DNA of 63,921 nt, counting the filler, from Reticulomyxa filosa (Eukaryota; Protista; Foraminifera): assembly GCA_000512085.1 (NCBI GenBank). It is 13 parts of 13 records of this genome, joined end to end, with 100 filler letters (N's around TTAATTAATTAA, not from the genome) between each part and the next. Parts side by side here need not be neighbours in the genome. Positions count along the whole stretch, not along the records: positions 17,519 to 24,132 come from ASPP01024221.1; 12 more parts are not named here. One strand, given 5' to 3'. Below the pieces are notes generated by a model. The model saw nothing but the letters and a program-made list of their open reading frames with translations, did not search any database and was not told the origin of the DNA. Shown here in pieces: positions 6,335-50,374 of the stretch. How positions within the stretch are numbered: the stretch's first letter is position 1; every line of letters begins with the position of its first letter. The position numbers were made by a program, and so were the translations under genes.

Positions 6335-8283
6335 ATGTCTTTGCAAGCTTTTATCTTTTTTAAAAATATGCATACAGCAACACTTGCTTCCAGCACCTTA
6401 CAAAGTTTGAAAGAAAAAGTGATTGAGATAATCAACAAAACTACTACTTGTACTCCTACGCCCAGTTTTAAAATCACCGACAACAATGGTCAAGATATTG
6501 ACAATGATCAAAAAGTGCAAGCTACTTTTGGGATGCAACCTGTTTTCTTTTTGGTCCATCTAATTGACAGTTTTGTTTGAATATATATTAATTTAGAAAG
6601 TCAAACTAAAACAATTAATTAAATGAATAGATAGTGACAATGATGAAAAGAAAAATGTAGAAAATGAAAAAATTAATGATGGAAATTGCCACAAAATTGT
6701 GCAACCATTAATATTATTAACAGGTGCTGCAAAATATGAAAATTCAGATTATTTGCCAGGAGTGAAAGCTGATTTAATAAATTTCAAAGTTTTATTTGAA
6801 GCATATGGCTATCAAGTACATTCCACTTATGATCAAAATAAACCTGAAACAGAATTGTTGACACTTAAACAATTAAACCTATTTTTAATGAAACATTATA
6901 TTAAATTACTTAAAAATAAGAATAATTATGATGCATTAATATTTGTATGGTGTGGTCATGGTAGTATCGCAGCAGAAGGAGATACATTAGTTACAAGTGA
7001 TGATCATAACTGTAAATTATTTAAAAAAATACAGGAATTATTTACAGATGATACAGATATGTTTTTAAATAAACCAAAAATATTTATCAAAAATGCATGC
7101 CGAGTGAATGATGAAGTTCAACAACTGTATAATCGTGAATCAGATACTCTATGTATATTTTCAACAACTCCTGGAAAATTCATAATTGATTCACCAGATT
7201 CTGGTAAAGGAAAAGGAAGTTATTTTGCAGATGCTTTTGTAATGTTATGTCAGAAAATCTTAACTCATCCAAGCCATTACATGACAATATACAATCAATT
7301 ACTGGGTTAGTTAAAAACAAAAAATTATCATCAGAAATCATTCAAACAGCTTCAACTTGTGATCGACATATATTTCTTAATAATAATAAGTTTCAAAAAA
7401 AAGCTTTAAAAGAGAAAGTAAAAATGGAAAAATATGACCAAAGCACAAAAAATAAAGTAAACACTGAAGTTGTTTTGCTTTCTCATGAGAAATATTGCTT
7501 TAACAAGGATTGGATTTTACAATTACAAGAAGAAAAAGAAATTGCACACCTCATTTGTTTAGTCTGCAAACAAATTGCAAACAACGCTCTGCAGCTAACG
7601 TGTTCACAACATGAAAAGACAAAGGAAACATTGATCATTGGAGAGAATTGTTTAAAATTATTCCTTGAAAAAAATAAATATTGTCCAATTCTATCACATG
7701 AAGATTGTTCATATTCAAGCAACAGAGTTGCGCGACATTTGATTGATAACTTACAAGTGATGTGTATACGACAATTTGAACAAGATCTAAAGACACCTAA
7801 TAAAACTGAGAGCAATGACAGTGTAATTAAATGCAATTTTATAGGGCCATTAAAATATTTACATGGTCATTTAAACAATGAATGCACATGGAAATCAATT
7901 GATTGTTGCTTTAAATCATTTGGTTGTAATCATAGTTGCTTTATCCACAATTTAAAAGATCATTTGAATACGAATATGCAAAAACATATTTGTTTAGTTT
8001 GCAAGTATATGAAAGAAGATAGTCAATTGAAAACTGAAGAGAATATTGAAAAATATAACAATGTCAAAAAAGAATTCTCCAGCTATCAAGAACAAGTCGA
8101 AATGTTGAAAAACGAATTTAATAACAGCAAAAAACAAATGCAATTGGCTCAACAAGAAGTTATTAACTCGTTGAAACAACAAAATACCAAATTAAATGAA
8201 GATTACCAAAAATTACTTCAAAAAGTAAATTCTCAAGACAAAGAAGAAAAAGAAAAAGAAAAAGAAAAAGAAAAAGAAAAAGA
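6335..8283 (+). CDS. PB1-like domain + caspase-like (C14) protease + RING/TRAF-type Zn fingers + coiled coil; 3'-truncated
   Basis: Exon 6335-6569 splices in frame (phase 1) to 6631. Catalytic dyad motifs ALIFVWCGHG and KPKIFIKNACR. A one-T frameshift near 7236 joins ORF 7247-8283, which carries CLVC...C..H...C...C and KCNFIG...HL..EC...C.F...GC...L..H Zn fingers. Confidence 0.85.
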
Positions 8284-17518: not shown

Positions 17519-17594
17519 TGATTTTTCATGGAGAAAATCAATTATCATCATAAGATATGTTTTAGGACTTCAGTTTTCTTTGCAACCTACTGTA
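17519..17594 (-). mobile_element. Tc1/mariner-like terminal inverted repeat (element end, followed by TA)
   Basis: ATTTTTCATGGAGAAAATC...TTTAGG...CAGTTTTCTTTGCAACCTACTG|TA is the diverged reverse complement of the TIR starting at 23420. Confidence 0.65.
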
Positions 17595-17790: not shown

Positions 17791-18099
17791 TTTCAAACAA
17801 TTAGTAAATATTTAATAAAAAACCAAATTATATTTAAAAACTACATTATTCGTATATATTTTTCAAAAAAAAAATTATGTCTGAATGTTGTTTTTTCAAT
17901 AATCTTTATAAGATGTCATTTTAGTTGTCAACTTTATTTTGCATTCTACTGTATATTCAACTGAAATCTTTTTTGCTTTATTTTAAGAGCAAATACATTT
18001 ATATATGTTCTTTTTTTGTGATAAAGCTATCGTTTTTATCAGCTTATTTCATGTATTGTCTTAAATTTTATTTGCTTACATTATTTTTCTCATAATATG

Positions 18100-20029: not shown

Positions 20030-21309
20030 GTTCAAAGTATTTAAGTTATATTGTGTCCGTGTTGCATCGACTTTCAGTGATTGGTGGTTGTTGATATACT
20101 ATTTGTTCTGGGTCAAGGAATAATACTATTCGTATATGCGATATTGAAATAACCAAAGATCGATCGTTTTCAAAGGACATAAAAGACTATTGAATAGTGC
20201 AAAATATGGATCAAATGAATTAGGAGATACAATATTATCTGGATCTGCTGATGAAAGTATTTGTTTGTGGGATATTCGATCAAATAAAAAAGAATTTTAT
20301 GTATTCAAAGGAGATGAAAAAAAAGACAATTGAATAAGACATCTTAAATTTAAACCATTGAAAAAGAAAGGAAATAAAAATGAAAAAATAATAATAGCTG
20401 TGATCGTACAGTCTATCAACAAAAACTCCAAAGTTTACTTCTGAAGAAACAAACGCACAGTAGCCGAACAAAGAAAAACGTATTAACGTTTCCATAAATT
20501 AAAAAATAAATTACTGTTTATTGTTGTAGGGTTCGTGCATGAGATGTAGACATTAATAAGCAAATTCAATCATTCGATGGACATTCAGATCGTGTAAGCT
20601 GTGTGAAATTTTCACCTTATCATTATCATAATAATCGTCAAAATGTCATTTGTTCTTCATCAGTTGAAACAATTCATTTTTGAAATATCAAAGATAATCA
20701 ACAATTACAAATATTTAATAAACACACTTATAGTGTTTGTGATATTGCATTTTCGCCACTTAATATTGATATTATTGTCAGTAGATCCAGAACACAAATA
20801 TCTATTCATGTATGTGATATTGAAACAACCAAACAATTCAATATATTCAATGGACATTAAAACGAAGTAATGATTGTAAGATATTACTCAAATGAGCTAG
20901 TGAGCAATGGTGCAAATACAATATTATCTGAATCAAGAGATAAAAGTGTTCGTTGTGGAATATTCGATCTGGTGAACAAATTCAATTGTTCAATGGACAT
21001 ACAAATTGGATTATGGATGTTGAATTTTTACCATTTGTAGTATATAATAGTGAAATTGGTAATATTTCAAATGTTATATGCTCTGGATCATTGGATAATA
21101 CAATTAGATTTTGGGATATTCGAGCAAATAAGAAGAAATTGTATATGATTAATGAACAAGACGTGGATGATGGAATATGTTGTCTTAAGTTTCTGTCATT
21201 GAAAACGAAAGAAAACTACAGTGAAAAAGCAAATTATGATCGTCATGTTACTATGTGTTACGATTTATCAAGTGGTCTTATTCATTTTTGGGGGAATACA
21301 TGTCAATGA
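20030..21309 (+). pseudogene. WD40-repeat family pseudogene fragments
   Basis: Repeated GH...VKYGSNE...ILSGS.D.S.RLWDIRSG units interrupted by stops and frameshifts; the 3' part (20953-21309) is still open. Confidence 0.8.
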
Positions 21310-21614
21310 AGTCTTTTGAATTTACATCAATTTTTTTCAGCGTAAAAATATGAACAAAGTTGTGTTGAATGGATTTCAATTAATTTTCCACTTATCATTC
21401 TATTTTGTTTATTTCATGGGATAAAATTAACATATTGTTAAAATAATCTAAAAATATTTTGAGTATTTTGTGAATACATTTGCTTTAAGAAATCATATTT
21501 GAATTCAGAATAAAATTATTCAAATCAAAAGTTTTTCTACTCTGTGAACGTTAATGATTTTTTGGGGTTAAAAAAGTAGATTCTAAAAAATTTTTATTGA
21601 GCAGGCCGAATTCA

Positions 21615-22709
21615 ATGACAAACTTTGGTTTTCTAACATTTTTTTTTTTCCAGTTTTTGTTTTATGGTTCAAAGTCTTCTTATGATCAGTGGATAAGAAT
21701 TATCATTGAAAACAAGTCAAACGAGCTTCTGGACGTAAAGAACAGTAAGTTGGAGTGGGGGAAATGGTATTGTAACAACGACAAGAGTGATGAAGGTTGC
21801 GGTCCTAGTAAATATTCACACATCGGATCTCGAACTGTTTTATCCTCTTGTGGTCGATCTGATGTAACTAGTGGAACTGAGGGATATTTTGAGCTTATTG
21901 CTACAGGAAACATGAGAGTTGCTTCGTTTAGATGGGACTGTCCTTATGGCAGAAAAAACAGCTATAGTGTTTCTGATACGTGCTCTGGTTGGAAGGTTAA
22001 CGCGTATGGTGGGAGTAAAGAGAACGGGCCAATCGGAGAAGTCATTATCATAGTAGAAAAAGACCCACCACCATCACCGCCACCACCGACACGCCCAAAA
22101 TGGCTTCTTTCTGATGCAATAAATGTAGCAGTTTGTGGGGGATCAGGGGTTGGAAAATCAAGTTTGGTCAACGCAATTAGAGGATTAAAACCAGGTGATC
22201 CAAAAGAAGCAAAAATTGATGTATGTGAAACAACAAACGTACATCAAGATTACCCTTTTTCCTTTGATGTTAATTCTATAAGTGTCAATTTTAGTATATG
22301 GGACTTACCTGGAGCTGGTACCGTTAATCATCCGTATGAAACATATATTGTTAATTTTGGAATTGGTTATATGAATTTGGTTATGGTTGTTGTTGGAGAG
22401 CGACTTACACCATTTGACTGTGAGATGATTAAATTTTTGGAGCAAAAAAATATCATTTATTATATTGTTCGTAACAAATTTGCTGATACAGCAAATAATA
22501 ATTTGTATGATAATAACATTACTCACAAACAAACATATAATAACGCCCGAAGTTATATAAATCGTAAATTGAAAAAAGTTGATATTAACGTGGCAAATTC
22601 TCGTATTTATCTTCTTTCGTCACGTGACAAAAATTTTGCAGATTGGGATAGCTTTATTCGTGAATTCAAATATGATCTCTCAAATCAAGTGTCTTCACAG
22701 GATACTTAG
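21615..22709 (+). CDS. Aegerolysin domain + polyproline linker + IRG/p47-like GTPase domain fusion
   Basis: Single open frame. About 21678-22061: YDQWIRIIIEN...VKN..LEWGK...DK..E...SCGRSD..SGTEG.FEL...F.WDCPYG.KN...W...G.....GPIG, the ostreolysin/pleurotolysin A pattern. Linker PPPSPPPP. About 22119-22682: INVAVCGGSGVGKSSLVNAIRG, VCETT, IWDLPGAGT, YYIVRNK, IYLLSS, the IRG G-domain pattern. Start is ATG 21615 or a splice acceptor at 21653. Confidence 0.9.
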   Translation: MTNFGFLTFFFFQFLFYGSKSSYDQWIRIIIENKSNELLDVKNSKLEWGKWYCNNDKSDEGCGPSKYSHIGSRTVLSSCGRSDVTSGTEGYFELIATGNMRVASFRWDCPYGRKNSYSVSDTCSGWKVNAYGGSKENGPIGEVIIIVEKDPPPSPPPPTRPKWLLSDAINVAVCGGSGVGKSSLVNAIRGLKPGDPKEAKIDVCETTNVHQDYPFSFDVNSISVNFSIWDLPGAGTVNHPYETYIVNFGIGYMNLVMVVVGERLTPFDCEMIKFLEQKNIIYYIVRNKFADTANNNLYDNNITHKQTYNNARSYINRKLKKVDINVANSRIYLLSSRDKNFADWDSFIREFKYDLSNQVSSQDT

Positions 22710-23417
22710 AGATGTCTTTTTAAATTTGTTTGATTTCAAAGTTCAAATCGAGTGCTAATCAGACTCCAAGTGAATTGTTATGTCACACATTCAAAAAATT
22801 TTTTTGTATAATTCTAAGTTATAAACCAAACTGTGTGACCTTTTAAAAACTTTGAAACATCAAATTCTTGCCACTCATTCAGAATTGAACAAATTCATTC
22901 ATTATTTGAAACTGGCATTACCAACCTATATTATTAATGAATTGTTTGCGTGCTTGTGCATTAACTTTAGCTCATTATACTTTTTCAAAAACGAATCAAA
23001 CAACAAATCAGCTATATGTTGAATATTTGTTTTTGCACAAAAACACACCAAACAAAAAAAACAGTTAGAGTAGAAAATTCTGTCCGATCTTCGTTAATTA
23101 AAAGATGTACTAACTATTTGATAAAATTATTGCAAAATATATTTACATATTTGTCTTGACATTTTTGTATTCAAGTGAAATTCTTCACTGTTAGTTATAA
23201 ATACATTTCAAAATCAAACCATTGAATTAACAAATTAATATAATATTGAATCAAAAAAAATTATTAGAAGAATTTGAATAATATCAAATTCACTATTCAC
23301 GTTAATTTCTCAAATAGTTTAGAAAACACAAATTATCATTAAGCTAAAAAGGTCAGCATCTAATCAGTTGTTTATACTTTTGACGCTGCAAAATTAAGTC
23401 AATTTTTTTTGATACAG

Positions 23418-23910
23418 TACAGTATATTGCAAAAAAAACTGCAATACCTAAATGGCACTATATGAAGAGAATCGATTTTCTCCATGAAAAATAAAGACTT
23501 AAACCTAATTTTTTTAAAAAATATCTACTAATCTTGTAGTTTTTAAATATTAAATTTTTTTTGTTGCTAATTTTCTTAATTGACATTTCAAAATTTTGAT
23601 ATTTAAAATAGTTAAACATTTGATTGCTTTTAAGAAAAGAGTTTCTGTTGGTATGCTGGTTGGTGGAGCTAGCATTCGATATGTAGCAAATAAATTTAAT
23701 ATAAATATATTTTCAATTTTGGCTGTCGTCATATAAGTGTAATGGAACCTTAAAAAGAAAAGCTGGATCTGGCAGGTCAGAGAAGATTCAGTATGTCACA
23801 AAATTAAAAAATAATGGATTGGTTTAAAGAAAATAATAGAACTGATAAATTTTCCTACTAATTCGCCAGACTTAAGTCCAATTGAGAACATTTGGTGGAC
23901 AATTATATAA
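23418..23910 (+). mobile_element. Internally deleted Tc1/mariner DNA transposon relic
   Basis: TA|CAGTATATTGCAAAAAAAACTGCAATACC TIR at 23420; frameshifted transposase remnant IMDWFKENN.ELINFPTNSPDLSPIENIW (SPDLNPIE motif) at about 23810-23900. Confidence 0.8.
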
Positions 23911-24879: not shown

Positions 24880-26892
24880 TTACGAAGCAAGCTTTGACAA
24901 TGCCACTAAAAAATCGACTTTTTCAACAAAATTCAAACAGTCTAATTTCGACTGCATCTGATAATGATGGGTAACAATTTCTTCTTTGGAGCGATGAAAT
25001 GTCAATTTGCAATCTGTTGGTTCTTCAGATACCACTTGGATGGACAAAATATTTGAGATATCGATGGATGCATGCGCAATAGATCCCAATTTTTCCTTGA
25101 CATAGTCACTGAAAAGCCCAACGGAGTTCACACGCAAGGGATTCAAACCATCCAAAGTGGTGACAGCATACCGATTGATGCGATATCTGTCAACCCCGAG
25201 TATTCTTCTTTCTTCCATTCCAGATTTTTTTTTGTTGCAACGCCACTCGGTGTATTCATTTGCAAGCTTAACCAAAGGAAATTCAAGACCGTCTTGATAA
25301 TCAGAGTCACCCGAACGGAGGTGCTTTGGCAAAATTACCAGATCGGAATGCTCCAAATCCAACAATCTGGTGGTGATGCTGAGCGCTTTCCCATTTTGCG
25401 TCTCTCCTTGATAAAAAAATTCAAAATATTGTGGATGGAAGTAAGTTCCCTACGCATTTTTGTATCATTGAAAAAACTTTGTGAAGTCCACGGATACGTA
25501 TAGATTGATGATCATGCAAAAAAAAAAATTATGTGTAATATATTTTTCTGTAATAAGGATGTATTTTTGCCAAACTTGTTTCTTTTTGTTCAGCATATAA
25601 CATAAATCCCTCAAAGTTAAAGCGGTACGCTCGAAATCGATTGGTACCACATGGCTCTCAGTCAAAGGACCAGGAACATGAACTCGAAGCAATTTTTTCT
25701 CACCGCAGGTTGCTTCCAATTTTTTCAAACTTTGTGTTCGAAATTGAACCACGCCATGGTCACTACCACCTGTTTTATGAAATGAATGCTGTTGGGTGAG
25801 GACACTACTATAATCACTCAGACCGCCTTGCACTTGTCCTTGCTCTTTCTTTCGTTCGCGCAGACAAAGTGCAACGGTGTTGGTGCCAATATCAATGGCG
25901 TGTTGACTTTTACTGAACATTGGAACGTCTTTTTCAATCATATCGTCTTCCCATGGAAACATTTCGTAGTCGTCTTGGCTTTTGCCTTTCAATTTTTTGC
26001 GTGGATTATCACGTTGCCATTTTGCAATACACTTTTCCAAAAACACTCCGATCAAAATGTCACGGTTTTGTGATATATCAATTGTTATGGGATCTTCGTC
26101 GATAAATTCCTCAAAATGGACTTCAAATCGTGTCATGTGTGCATTTGTATGTTGTCTGTGGTTTCCAACTTGTAAGGGCTGCCATCGTATCCTTTCTTCA
26201 TCATATTCCTCCCCAAATCCACTTTCGCTACTGCCACTATCACCACTGTTCTTTGTCGCATGTCTCATTGTCTTCCTTTTGCCGTTTACAACTCCATTTG
26301 CATCGCCGTTAACATTCAATTCTGCAATGGACTCCAAATTTCTCTCTCTTCGACTACTTGTATTAGCTAGGGTGCGATTATGTGACGCTACTCTGTTCAA
26401 TCCACCAACTCTATTTTCATCGGACGTTTTCATCTCCCCGATCAATGAAGAAAGACCTGACTTTCGTCGTAGATTGGGTGGTGGACTCATCTCTTCTTTA
26501 TCAAATTGCAATGGAGTTATTCCTTTCTTTTTGCTATGAATGTAGTGTTCGCTTTTGTTTTGTATTTGCGTTTTCTTGCTTGTGTTCATTTGAGAGGGAT
26601 TACACGCTTGTTTTCTTTCACTGGATGAACTTTCTTCCACACCAAAGTTAGCTGAAAGGCCTTTATTGAGTTTTGTGTCTTGGCCACTTACTTGCTCATT
26701 ATCACTATTGTCACTGTTATATTCTAATTCCTCGGTTGACATTTTCTCAAATTTGTCCAGTCGTTGTGTGTGTTTACTTTCGTCGTTGTTATAATGATTC
26801 ATAGGATTATCTTCGTCACTTTCAACCATAGAAAGTGCTTCGCTTTTTTGAACTACAGAATGTTGAATTATTTCCTTCGATATTGCTATCAT
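24880..26892 (-). CDS. SIN1: TORC2 subunit SIN1/Avo1/MAPKAP1 homolog (CRIM, RBD, PH); 5' end uncertain
   Basis: CRIM-like (ILIGVFLEKCI...YEMFPWEDDMIEKDVPMF...VALC); ubiquitin-like RBD spanning a phase-0 intron 25575-25450; C-terminal PH (ERRILGVD...IDISNI...HHYQM...NFVEKVDFLV). Confidence 0.75.
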
Positions 26893-46020: not shown

Positions 46021-49000
46021 TTATATGGTCGCTTGTGTTTTTGTTTCTGATTTCTGTCGAGATTTTGTAGAGCTTCCCATTAATTCCAAAGAATAAGCCA
46101 CGCTCTCTATATTTTCATAAAAGAGATTACTAACAAAAATGTAACGACACAAAAAACAGAGTAATAATGTATGAGCCCAAACCTCTCCAAATGCTTTTCG
46201 CTCGACCATTTTTCCAACAACTAATACTGATGGCAGCCATAAAACAGCAATCAATGGCAATTAGTCCACAACAAAGTAAATATATAGCCATACTGGAACT
46301 ACTGAACATACTGTCATTATGTATAGACAGAAGCATCCAAACAATTTGTTGAAAAAAAAATGGCACTGCCAAAATCCAAAATGGAAAAGCCGAAAATTGT
46401 TCGGAAAGTGTGTATCGTTTATCTTTGTAGAGTAAATACTGGTACGTGCAATAGTAAGAAAACAACGCCATTGCGGACAAAGGAATAACAAGTGGGCAAA
46501 ACAAACCTAGCAAAAATGTCAATTCCAAATTCGAATAGATATCCAATATTTCAATATGTATCTGATAAGAAGAAGGTTGATATATGTTGGCCCATGAAAC
46601 AAACTTTCGACAACCAACAAAGAGCCAAGGAGTTATCATATCGAACACCTTTTGAATGACAATGATGTTTCCCCATTTTTCAAGAATTTCACGAATGCAT
46701 TTACCTGGAATATTTTATGTATTGTGACAATTTTAAAAACAAACACATGACACGTATTCTCGCATCTTACCAGGTTGATATTGATGGTTGTGACAAATGT
46801 CATTCCATTTCATGCCCACGACTCTTCCTTTTGCGGTGACTTCACCCACAATGAGCCAAATAACGTTCCATTCATATCCCACCACTACATCTTCCGGATT
46901 TGATTGAGCACATGGAATCCAGTAATGTACCCACGCACGAGCACAGTTATCATAAAAGAATAGAGCAGTTACGATGGGAACGAAAACACATGCAAATGAT
47001 CTCAAGATTACCAGAAGTGCATTATGATATTTTCGAACCGATGACCGATGTTTTATACCGGCATGATAAAATACAATTTCAGTTGTGTAAAAAGCAAGGT
47101 CCTTTGCAATGAAGGAGTTGTGAATAGAAAATACCAATGACATGATTTGTTGAATCAAATATAAAAATGTTGTGGACAAGTTTAGCGTATTGTTTCCTGG
47201 CAATGCTGCAAATGCAAAATATAGAAATATACAAGTAATTGCAATCATCCATCCTATCAATGTCAGCAAAAACTTTACATATATTTTCCAATCAAATGTC
47301 AGCGATTGAGTTTGTGTTTGTTGCGTCGTTTGTGGCTGTGCCGTTTGTAGTGAGACGTTGGTCGATATATTTTCTTTCGCTTCCTCTTTATTTTCCTTTT
47401 GCAGCTCTGTCATCCGGAAAGAGGCAGTGTAAGGACGAGGATTTCGTAGACGATCAAACGCATACGCCGCAACGACTCCGTTTGAAAACAACACAGTCAA
47501 CAACATCACCACTGTCACCCCCACAGAAGAACTTTCAAAGTATGCTAGCGACAGATGTGACAATGGATAGCCTCGCGAATAGTATCCACTCCCAGCGAAA
47601 TAGATTGATGTCAACACAATCACTACTATAATTCCAAGCCAACTGTTCAACATTTCGAACGCGTCCTATTCTCCAAATTTTTTTTGTCAAATAAGCAAAA
47701 GGCAGGTCATTGAATGCACGCGAAGAAGGGGATGCATATACACACACAAAAAAAGGTAACCTTCATTTGTAGGAAATTCACATGATTTTGTAACAACTGT
47801 GGCCGAAATAAATCCCACTTTTCGCCAATGTATTGCTTGAAAAAAGGATATTGGAAAAGCCGAAATGCAAACAGAAACGAGGCCAAGGCCAAGGCAATAG
47901 CGACGACCATAATTTCTCCAAACTCTCTTTCTGTTCGAATGCAAAGATTTTGAGCGTTTTTTTCATCAGTAGATACATAATCAGGCAACTGACTATTGGA
48001 AACCAGATTGGGCCATTGTTTATTACGTGTCATGCGATTGCCAGTCAAATAAAGTCCGCCGCTTAATTTCTTGGAAATGTCAAAGTGCAATGACAAGACT
48101 GTTCCAAAAAAAAACAAAAAAAGGAAGGTCATTCTTCTCCTCCTCTCCAAATGGACAAATAAAAATGCGTGATCATGTTTACGCAACTGTATGGAAATCC
48201 AAGATAAGGGTCAGTGAGATTTAACATCAGAGTCGATTTTCGAATTTGATTGGTGTCGAACATGGAATGAGGTAGTGCACCAGAAAGGCGATTTTTGGAT
48301 ATCGTTGCAAATGTCGTATGTCCATAAGAGCCATTGCTCCAGGGCAGTTCTCCACTGATCCCACAACCATGTAGCAATAAAGCTCTCAAATTCGAGTTGT
48401 AAACAGAAGCGGGAAGACTTCCAGTCAATCCAGGATTATTGAACAATGCCAGTATTTGTAAATCTCCGGCTTTCGTAAACAGTTCATCCAACCTTTATTT
48501 TTAATATATTAGGCATCTTCAAAAACAAATATTATAGACATTGCACAAACATAGACAAAAAATGGACCATTGGGTGATGTTGTTGTCCGATAAATGATTG
48601 TTTTGAAATCCCAAAATAAGAGCGTCCGACATGTCAGTAGGTAAAAGAGGCAATTTATTGCGAAATTGATTGTTTCCAACGGAAAAGATGTTCAAATAAT
48701 TGTTATGTCGTAATGACGGTATAGCGCCTTCAAAGTGGTTATTATCTGCAACAAAAATAGTCAGCCATGTGAGATTGTCAAAGAGAGGCAAAGTGCCATG
48801 GAAACTATTATCGCTCAAATCGACAATTTGCAAACGCGTCCAATTCGAAAAGGCTGGTTCAATGGTTCCACTCAATTGATTGTCTCGCAGGGAGAGCAAA
48901 CTCAACGTTGGGAAATTGCTCTTCCAGGTAGTGATAGGCAGGCTTCCAACAAACTCGTTTTGAGACAAATCCAGCAATGCCAAATTGGGCCATTGCCAAT

Positions 49001-49952
49001 ATGGTGCAATTTGATCCAATGAATTGTTTAAGTGATTATTGGATAAATCAATATATTTGATATTGGACAATCCACCCAACTCTTTCGGGAGTTCACCGCT
49101 CAATTTATTGTTACTCAGAACCAACATTGTCAAATTCACCAAATCTCCAATTTCAAGCGGTACGGTCCCACTCAAAAGGTTCGCTGACACAATAAAAAAT
49201 ACCAATTGTGTCAATCGTCCCAATGTCGGTGGTATTGGTCCACTCAGTTGATTCGATTCCAAGTACAAATATACCAACTCAGACATGTTACCTACTTCTT
49301 CCGGTATACGTCCTGAAAAGTAGTTGTCTCGAAGGTCGAAATCAGATAAATGTGTCAAATTACCTACTGTCGATGGTATATTCCCAGTGAATTCATTGCC
49401 GTATAATACCAGCGTTTGCAATTGCCAAAGGTTACCTATTTCGTTTGGCAATGTACCGTTTAAATGATTGTCTGGTAAGTACAATTCTCTCAGATTCGAA
49501 AGCTCACTGGCCATGCGTATTATTCATACGAAAACCGCATAAAGTACACATATATTATTTACATTTTTTTTTTTTTTTTTTTTGCTTTCCAATTTTTTAT
49601 TTATTCTAAATTGCTTGATTTGAAGGGGAAGGGAGAACACAAAAAATGAGCAATACAAGCCACGTAACCAAAGTTCCACCGGAAATGGACCGTACAGATC
49701 ATTGTGTCCCAAATTCAAAATTTGTAAAGAGGTCAGATTTGACAAACATGCAGGTATGCTCCCATACAGCCCATAATATTTAAGATATAGCTTAGTAACT
49801 GTTGCATTCTCACATTGGACCCCATTATACGAGCAGCCGTCTTGAGATGTGATATTCCAAGGTTTACTCCATTGCTCACCCTTTGTAGCGTTGTAAAGGC
49901 AGTGCAACGCCCTAAGTTCGCTTGCAAGAAGAATATCCGAAGACATGTGCAC
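46021..49952 (-). CDS. LRR-ectodomain protein with a C-terminal 10-11 TM domain resembling TMC/OSCA channels
   Basis: N-cap (ALHCLYNAT.G..W...CSYNGVQC) and roughly 20 LxLxxNxLSGxIP repeats (49952-48000), then hydrophobic helices over 47900-46130; phase-1 intron about 46770-46705; some junctions or frameshifts unresolved. Confidence 0.75.
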
Positions 49953-50374
49953 AAATTATTCCTTCTTTTCTCAAATGCTCAAAATAAAACGTTTAAACCT
50001 GCGTTTATGTGGTAGCAAACGAGGGTTGTTGATTTAAAACTTCCTCTTGTGAGTGACTCTTAACAACTTAACGGCTTTCATATTTTGTTTTTATGGAGTG
50101 TATAGATATTCACAAAATAAGAGATTAGTCGAGTCTACAACTATGATTTTTTTATAGAAACAAAAGACCCAAAATTTAATTATCGAGTAGATCTTTGATT
50201 TTGTAATGTTCTTTTCAATGAAGACGACAACAAAAAAAAATTTTTGAAAGCTTATGTATTCCGCAGATGCAATCACAAACACAACATTGTACAAAAGAAA
50301 AAAAAGGACATGCCAAAAGTGGTGAGCATGATTACTCACCTTCCCAAAAACAGGGAAAAAAATAAAAAATAAGA

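Follow-up and report, generated by a model that had tools for sequence, protein, structure and literature searches.

An aegerolysin fused to an IRG-like G domain in a single gene of the foraminifer Reticulomyxa filosa

Aegerolysins and IRG GTPases represent two separate, well-studied modes of membrane action. Can both be carried by one polypeptide chain, and what might such a protein do? The question is raised by a gene in a 63,921-nucleotide stretch of DNA (the window) from the foraminifer Reticulomyxa filosa, an AT-rich eukaryote. The window is made up of 13 contigs joined end to end with 12 spacers of the form 44 N, TTAATTAATTAA, 44 N, and the order across the spacers is not genomic; the gene lies on the contig at 17519–24132 (6614 bp). 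An initial annotation had described one frame with aegerolysin motifs, a linker and G-domain motifs, and every motif that it named is present in the 364-codon open reading frame: YDQW, WGK, CGRSD, GTEG, WDCPYG, PPPSPPPP, GGSGVGKS, VCETT and WDLPG. The encoded protein, P0001, has the following parts.

21615–22709, plus strand: single uninterrupted open reading frame of 364 residues, translated without a stop; aegerolysin plus IRG-like G domain.
21678–22061, plus strand: aegerolysin beta-sandwich, residues 22–149, assigned by Pfam, PDB alignment and an Atlas model; W48 corresponds to W28 of ostreolysin A6 (OlyA6) and K114 to K99, and S86 stands at the E69 position.
22062–22106, plus strand: proline-rich linker ending P-T-R-P-K-W-L; the counterpart in P0010 is P-T-R-P-E-W-L.
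22107–22706, plus strand: IRG-type G domain with its final helix, residues 165–364, equivalent to Irga6 67–258, assigned from an AlphaFold model and its structural match.

The initial annotation had proposed a profile search as a check on its claim of a complete aegerolysin and an IRG-like G domain, and in that search both halves lay far above the curated Pfam cut-offs. Aegerolysin (PF06355) matched residues 25–147 with an E value of 6.5e-27 (94.6 bits against a cut-off of 22; profile positions 2–128 of 131), and IIGP (PF05049) matched residues 167–357 with an E value of 7.5e-24 (84.9 bits against a cut-off of 24; profile positions 34–219 of 375). Sequence matches in PDB divided in the same way: pleurotolysin A (5e-20), ostreolysin A6, RahU and AfIP-1A for the first half, and Irgb6 (1e-14), Irga6 (3e-13) and Irgb10 for the second. 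Structure comparison agreed. The Atlas model of the first half superimposed on an Aegerolysin cluster with a TM score of 0.90 over 129 residues, both sides being predicted, and has the predicted actinoporin-like beta-sandwich fold. For the second half, an AlphaFold model of residues 155–364, built on 60 sequences (pLDDT, the model's confidence score, 95.4), was closest to Irga6 (5fph; Z 21.7, root-mean-square deviation 3.0, 189 residues aligned, Irga6 residues 67–258). The 15 best structural matches were all IRG entries (Z 21.7–18.4), the first non-IRG protein being YsxC (Z 18.4), and a viral fold library returned only generic GTPases. A single-sequence fold of the whole protein had a pLDDT of 39.6 and was not used. 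The aegerolysin–IRG fusion, in one intact gene, is real. The initial account of the gene stood as regards motifs and domains; it had overlooked a signal-like leader, an unusual G4 motif (NKFA) and an inverted copy of the gene's 3′ end.

The last of these features bears on whether two unrelated loci were falsely joined at the proline-rich linker during assembly. The assembly is fragmented and composition steps at the junction, both of which fit such an error; the DNA upstream of the gene speaks against it.

21309–21536, minus strand: inverted, decayed copy of the 3′ end of the gene and of the DNA beyond it (core 21462–21535 against 22629–22706).

The core of this copy, 79 nt upstream of the ATG, is 79% identical to the GTPase end of the gene (blastn, 62/78, E 5e-12), and 10 of 12 substitutions, counted by eye, are towards A/T in the upstream copy. 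A wider alignment (21309–21536 against 22629–22852) covers 152 of 237 columns with a score of 98; the highest scores otherwise reached were 54 among 300 shuffles and 56 among 304 real windows. In the right arm lies the coding sequence for the conserved final helix of the G domain, so the left arm is a relic of the end of an IRG-like gene. This kinship between the aegerolysin-side DNA and the GTPase side connects the two halves with a single locus without reference to the linker, and it argues against misassembly there. The reading frame is also kept across the join, which falls at a natural module boundary, and we consider a false join scarcely credible. The relic shows that the locus was rearranged and gives no date for the fusion. 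We did not adopt a terminal-inverted-repeat transposon enclosing the gene as the explanation, since the right arm is conserved G-domain coding sequence and the search for target-site duplications gave nothing above 6 nt. Directly upstream of the gene (20078–21309, plus strand) lie two dead WD40 copies, broken by stops and frameshifts, and a frameshifted Tc1/mariner-like transposase remnant lies 1.1 kb downstream (23800–23910, plus strand; Pfam DDE_3, E 4e-4, below cut-off). Beside this remnant and near the contig ends are two inverted repeat pairs of 72–74% identity (17521–17581 with 23432–23492, and 17798–17871 with 23509–23582), which are not nested as terminal repeats would be.

How common is this architecture? 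A phmmer search against 1.84 billion representatives gave 1882 matches at E 1e-3, of which the best 150, down to 78.6 bits, were considered. None of 155 other proteins, these 150 included, has both domains; six of the 155 match the aegerolysin half, all of them short and stand-alone. A second fusion would sum two domain scores and should therefore rank among the best 150 unless both its halves were very distant. A word-based search of a 90% collection (200–637 residues, 1137 candidates) found four other proteins, all with a G domain only, and an aegerolysin profile search found 18 proteins of 72–321 residues, the 15 new ones carrying Aegerolysin only. Three candidate second fusions, P0009, P0019 and P0057, proved to be tandem or single G-domain proteins. 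Viral contigs, scanned at the DNA level with P0001 and with the aegerolysin alignment, gave no match. Prokaryote genomes gave no aegerolysin match and one weak 76-residue match to P0001, in a Candidatus Atribacteria genome (L002:3001–3174; 34%, query residues 221–296, E 6e-4). The plasmid scan yielded one weak GTPase only, and the metagenome scan one confirmed locus among 136 pattern matches (L001), which lacks an IRG domain. The exact P0001 sequence is already deposited, in a cluster of one member, so automated domain indexes hold the architecture. In the openly readable literature, supplements aside, we found no description of an aegerolysin–GTPase fusion, and the word GTPase is absent from the accessible part of an aegerolysin review (PMC9505663; this and the other papers given by PMC number are cited for the accessible parts of their text). 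These results agree with the initial annotation, which knew of no description of the architecture.

Aegerolysin–cargo fusions as such do have precedent; for a GTPase as the cargo there is none in anything searched. In apicomplexan aegerolysin–HEPN proteins of the MAL13P1.321 type, the N-terminal aegerolysin has been proposed to be a membrane-targeting module (PMC3710099). Like P0001, these proteins have an N-terminal aegerolysin that would aim a C-terminal cargo domain, but they contain two aegerolysin domains and an inactive HEPN cargo and are conserved across apicomplexa, whereas P0001 has one aegerolysin domain, a GTPase cargo and a single occurrence. Another aegerolysin–enzyme fusion appears in a bacterial cluster of the ESM Atlas, consisting of metallophosphoesterase proteins of about 450 residues, 22% of which also have Aegerolysin.

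We turn now to the GTPase half and to the place that the aegerolysin takes in it. The N- and C-terminal helical domains and the myristoylated Gly2 of vertebrate IRGs are missing: the model corresponds to Irga6 67–258, and the profile match ends at position 219 of 375. A quick tree of 142 of 158 proteins (16 were omitted, namely 6 aegerolysins and 10 proteins without a clean G1–G3 pair) divided into 48 long proteins, most of them with a helical tail, and 94 others. In a more careful tree, made from 39 of the 142 rows, P0001 fell with 14 short proteins at a support of 97/96, with a bootstrap that had not fully settled. In the 14-row nearest set, two rows of which are isoforms of one species, a Met-Gly start is found in 9 of 14, a hydrophobic N-terminal stretch in 12 of 14 and one or the other in all 14; 11 of 14 end within 160–215 residues of G1, and a long tail occurs in 0 of 14, compared with 35 of 48 in the long group. 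The IIGP match never extends past profile position 231 in 86 selected non-animal-like proteins. The missing helical domains are thus a trait of the whole short IRG-like clade. Clade proteins also carry P-x-P-x-W-L ahead of beta1, and the fusion junction falls at this motif (PPPPTRPKWL in P0001, PPAPTRPEWL in P0010); a P-x-P motif before G1 is present in 62 of 93 short-group rows, as against 2 of 48 long-group rows. Because P-x-P-x-W-L precedes the G domain in the short clade, the linker is part of the GTPase module.

Comparison with relatives such as P0010 and P0014 is therefore instructive. These short, anchored, non-animal IRG-like GTPases share with P0001 the clade, the P-x-P-x-W-L before beta1 and the stop after the G domain, and differ in that their Gly2 or hydrophobic helix is replaced in P0001 by a leader and an aegerolysin, and in the alanine of the P0001 G4 motif. 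Judging from these alignments, the aegerolysin occupies the slot in which relatives keep a likely N-terminal membrane anchor. The idea, put forward at the outset, that the aegerolysin serves as the membrane-targeting module of the GTPase gains support, with the amendment that the slot is the N-terminal anchor of a short clade already devoid of the vertebrate helical domains. The analysis also shows that short, anchored IRG-like GTPases form a large group outside animals, some members being joined to a PARP, RING, U-box or lipase domain. GTPases of this kind without the vertebrate helical domain make up 94 of the 142 rows, often with Gly2 or a hydrophobic N-terminus, and members of the short clade include proteins of Siedleckia nematoides (P0029) and Ploeotia vitrea (P0151). 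Partner domains among the 86 scanned proteins were PARP in one (P0077), RING in four (P0079, P0113, P0139 and P0156) and lipase 3 in one (P0114), and P0005 has a U-box. A 2005 survey reported no unambiguous IRG homologue beyond vertebrates (PMC1297648), and in the literature on IRGs in protists we found neither a paper describing the short non-animal group nor a family name for it; later work may have covered the group.

What might the aegerolysin bind? The OlyA6 residues W28 and K99, to which roles in the lipid channel are assigned (PMC10975569), are kept as W48 and K114 in the alignment. By contrast E69, a determinant of sphingomyelin/cholesterol recognition in the OlyA/PlyA type, is replaced by Ser86; this position is Ser or Thr in 18 of 20 aligned aegerolysin relatives. 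VerA, which also has Ser at the E69 position, showed no sphingolipid binding and bound only phosphatidic acid, at pH 6, and its authors offered the serine merely as a possible cause (PMC10975569). The profile, the fold and two of the three residues of the lipid site identify the first half of P0001 as an aegerolysin; at E69 it departs from an OlyA-type sphingolipid sensor. Its sequence suggests that the domain likely binds a membrane lipid and that the ligand is probably not sphingomyelin/sterol. The specificity for sterol/sphingomyelin or ceramide phosphoethanolamine that the initial annotation had assumed is doubtful, because the residue at E69 is Ser, as in VerA. Aegerolysins are usually stand-alone proteins of 15–20 kDa (PMC9505663), a description from which the 364-residue fusion departs. 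P0001 resembles pleurotolysin A and ostreolysin A6 (PDB 4oeb and 6myj) in its complete beta-sandwich, in W28 and K99 and in a predicted mature start of the form x-Y-x-Q-W; it differs in being a GTPase fusion with a signal-like leader, in the serine at E69 and in that no partner gene was seen on its short contig. Also comparable are the stand-alone aegerolysins with signal-like leaders (P0159, encoded at L001:997–1566, and P0145, P0165, P0170 and P0125) and the stand-alone aegerolysin P0069 of another foraminifer, Bolivina argentea (43% identity). These have a homologous leader and domain, 30–43% identity and Ser/Thr at the E69 position, but stop after the domain or a short tail. A 19-row aegerolysin tree did not resolve the donor, and the signal-bearing aegerolysins did not form a single branch in it. 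The fern Ceratopteris richardii has seven aegerolysin records (P0161, P0164, P0166–P0169 and P0172). Two cysteines, at residues 53 and 62 (window 21771–21800), lie nine residues apart in one loop of P0001 and are missing from aligned relatives; in an exported protein a disulfide could link them.

Is P0001 exported? Two features at the 5′ end bear on this question.

21615–21677, plus strand: signal-peptide-like leader, residues 1–21, assigned by homology to the leader of the L001 aegerolysin and by small residues at –3/–1.
21633–21653, plus strand: CTAAC, a T-run and CAG within the leader, a sequence pattern resembling a branch point and 3′ splice acceptor.

The predicted cleavage, ahead of Ser22, would yield a mature S-Y-D-Q-W start that equals the A-Y-A-Q-W of pleurotolysin A. 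The L001 contig is an AT-rich, eukaryote-like metagenome contig of 2.7 kb. Its aegerolysin begins with the same three residues as P0001 and shares FQ and S-x-S before Y-x-Q-W; the global score of the two leaders was matched by 1 of 5000 shuffles, in a comparison picked after the likeness had been noticed. Five relatives (P0159, P0145, P0165, P0170 and P0125) have small residues at –3/–1, one residue ahead of Y-x-Q. Given that residues 1–21 share homology with the signal-like leaders of aegerolysins that stand alone, the P0001 GTPase is probably exported. With such a leader the protein would probably end up on the secretory side and not at the cytosolic face, where IRGs attack vacuoles; this runs counter to the vacuole-membrane attack first proposed for it.

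If instead the leader is spliced out or inefficient, P0001 could be a cytosolic IRG-like effector, the reading nearest to the initial annotation, in which the aegerolysin would bring the GTPase to prey or parasite vacuoles from the cytosolic side and GTP-driven oligomers would damage the membrane. The CTAAC–polyT–CAG pattern lies in phase 0, and the leader's hydrophobicity is weak. The nearest set's Gly2 proteins (9 of 14) are presumably cytosolic, and EryA expressed in E. coli binds a cardiolipin-rich membrane, an indication that aegerolysins can act inside cells. The P0001 leader, however, aligns with that of the L001 aegerolysin from the first Met onward, as an intron would not, and upstream no coding exon is convincing: the candidates would require introns of at least 247 nt (the length implied by the nearest upstream phase-0 donor with an open ATG) and derive from the WD40 relic or from junk frames. 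The splice-like pattern occurs three times on the plus strand of the window and not at all on the minus strand. P0001 also lacks a helical bundle of the membrane-deforming kind found in Irgb6. We regard a cytosolic effector as unlikely.

Whether the G domain could work depends on its catalytic motifs.

22137–22160, plus strand: G1 P-loop GGSGVGKS, of the GKS type; K181 is Lys in 141/141 relatives.
22221–22235, plus strand: switch I VCETT, with E205 at Irga6 E106 and T207 at T108, from the alignment.
22302–22313, plus strand: G3 DLPG; D230 is Asp in 141/141 relatives.
22473–22484, plus strand: G4 NKFA, with Ala290 at Irga6 D186, from the alignment with 141 relatives.

Residues E106, T108, R159 and D164 are needed for oligomerisation and hydrolysis in Irga6 (PMC3042988), and their equivalents are kept in P0001 as E205, T207, R263 and D268. 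The branch leading to P0001 has a length of 0.96 in a clade spanning 0.46–1.26, so that no run-away decay of the G domain is seen. The G4 motif is the exception: the Asp column holds Asp in 121 of the 141 relatives, Asn in 10 and Ala in none. The Irga6 mutant D186N lost guanine affinity and retained GTP oligomerisation, inefficiently (PMC3042988). Since that mutant still oligomerised, the alanine may reflect nucleotide binding that is weaker or less selective, an early stage of decay or an error in sequencing. Compared with mouse Irga6, Irgb6 and Irgb10 (PDB 5fph, 7vex and 7c3k), P0001 has the same G-domain fold, the GKS P-loop and the E106/T108/R159/D164 equivalents, and it differs in having no helical domains, no Gly2 and no G4 Asp, in being probably exported and in its non-animal host. 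The second half thus resembles an IRG G domain and falls outside the vertebrate IRGs on G4 and the helical domains.

Our preferred reading, which we hold tentatively, is that P0001 is an exported lipid-sensing coat or sensor clustered by nucleotide-dependent pairing of its G domains. In the N-terminal anchor slot of a short non-animal IRG-like GTPase, an aegerolysin with its predicted leader would carry the protein to the cell surface or the lumen of a food vacuole, where the aegerolysin would bind a membrane lipid. Nucleotide-dependent G-domain pairing (presumably as dimers) would then cluster the protein on the membrane, and the G4 change may relax guanine specificity, which could suit a compartment poor in GTP. 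The result would be a lipid-gated, avidity-building coat or sensor on prey, microbial or own membranes, with any membrane damage arising from crowding or a separate partner, since no piercing element is present. OlyA6 vesiculates membranes at high concentration (PMC9505663), and Irgb6 needs K275/R371 on its helical bundle for membrane deformation (PMC9504060). Because neither MACPF hairpins nor an Irgb6-type helical bundle is present in the models, P0001 by itself is unlikely to form a pore. Nothing in the structure supports the proposal that the GTPase takes the place of a MACPF partner, as the model consists of a G domain and its last helix and no more. A stronger version, in which the G domain, with its relaxed G4, uses luminal or prey ATP or GTP to polymerise aegerolysins until the membrane vesiculates, would make P0001 an exported single-chain membrane-attack protein. 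We think this doubtful; if true, it would place an IRG-type GTPase outside the cytosol and provide an aegerolysin needing no MACPF partner, both from a domain-shuffling protist IRG-like family.

A separate partner is what the A-component of a two-part pore would need, the aegerolysin recruiting a MACPF or other protein encoded elsewhere and the G domain only regulating assembly. The initial observation that the contig carries no MACPF gene held by inspection of window open reading frames of at least 110 residues, and it has no weight, as a contig of 6614 bp is too short to argue against a partner. Several aegerolysins use partners encoded elsewhere or by other species, while many have no adjacent partner (PMC9505663). 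Neither the 6.6-kb contig nor L001 (2.7 kb) showed one, and a C-terminal domain of 200 residues might hinder the docking of one. Taken together, a two-part pore seems highly improbable.

Several observations weigh against an exported coat or sensor. The leader is less hydrophobic than those of relatives (best 12-residue mean 1.88, compared with 2.53 and 2.84), has no basic residue in its n-region and contains the splice-acceptor-like motif, and we know of no obvious GTP supply for a GTPase on the secretory path. In the G domain, the Irga6 interface residues E77, T102 and G103 differ (Gly, Ile and Asp), although relatives vary there also, with Asp at the G103 position in 16 of 141; the G4 alanine, found in no other of the 142 rows, may point to lost function or to an error in the sequence. 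As a singleton (0/155), the fusion offers no comparative evidence of selection. Finally, synonymous GC content at third codon positions steps from 0.34 (42/122) to 0.18 (35/196) at the junction (Fisher p 0.0012), as expected of a young join, so the two halves have different histories.

Another reading is a young passenger chimera, in which a rearrangement put the start of an aegerolysin gene into an IRG-like gene and left the G domain idle, the tail decaying or the gene silent, with an aegerolysin that may still bind lipid when secreted. The single copy in the databases searched, the codon-composition step, the G4 Ala seen in 0/141 relatives and an export that parts the GTPase from cytosolic GTP all point this way, as do the rearrangement scar beside the ATG, the Tc1-like remnant downstream and the dead WD40 copies upstream. 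Against it stand 364 open codons, while the adjoining WD40 copies and the inverted relic hold stops and indels. The other catalytic residues are kept, the G-domain model is confident (pLDDT 95.4) and the branch is not long; as these do not date the fusion, they weaken the chimera reading without going further. We judge it somewhat unlikely. If P0001 is expressed, it shows that exchanging the anchor for a lipid-sensing domain can redirect an IRG G domain, and possibly that an immunity-type GTPase can act on the exported side of a membrane. As a small, intronless construct, P0001 would also allow one to test how an IRG G domain behaves when it has no helical bundle.

Other parts of the window hold genes of separate interest. 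A Sin1-like gene (a TORC2 subunit) lies on another contig at 24880–26937, minus strand; its CRIM (E 0.018) and SIN1_PH (E 0.0018) matches follow one another as expected, and neither reaches the cut-off. At 6627–8283, plus strand, a caspase-domain frame (Peptidase_C14, E 4e-16) is followed by a Cys/His-rich region in a second frame, which may resemble a TRAF-type zinc finger. At 46130–49955, minus strand, a leucine-rich-repeat region followed by hydrophobic multi-pass frames makes up a receptor-like gene in several exons.

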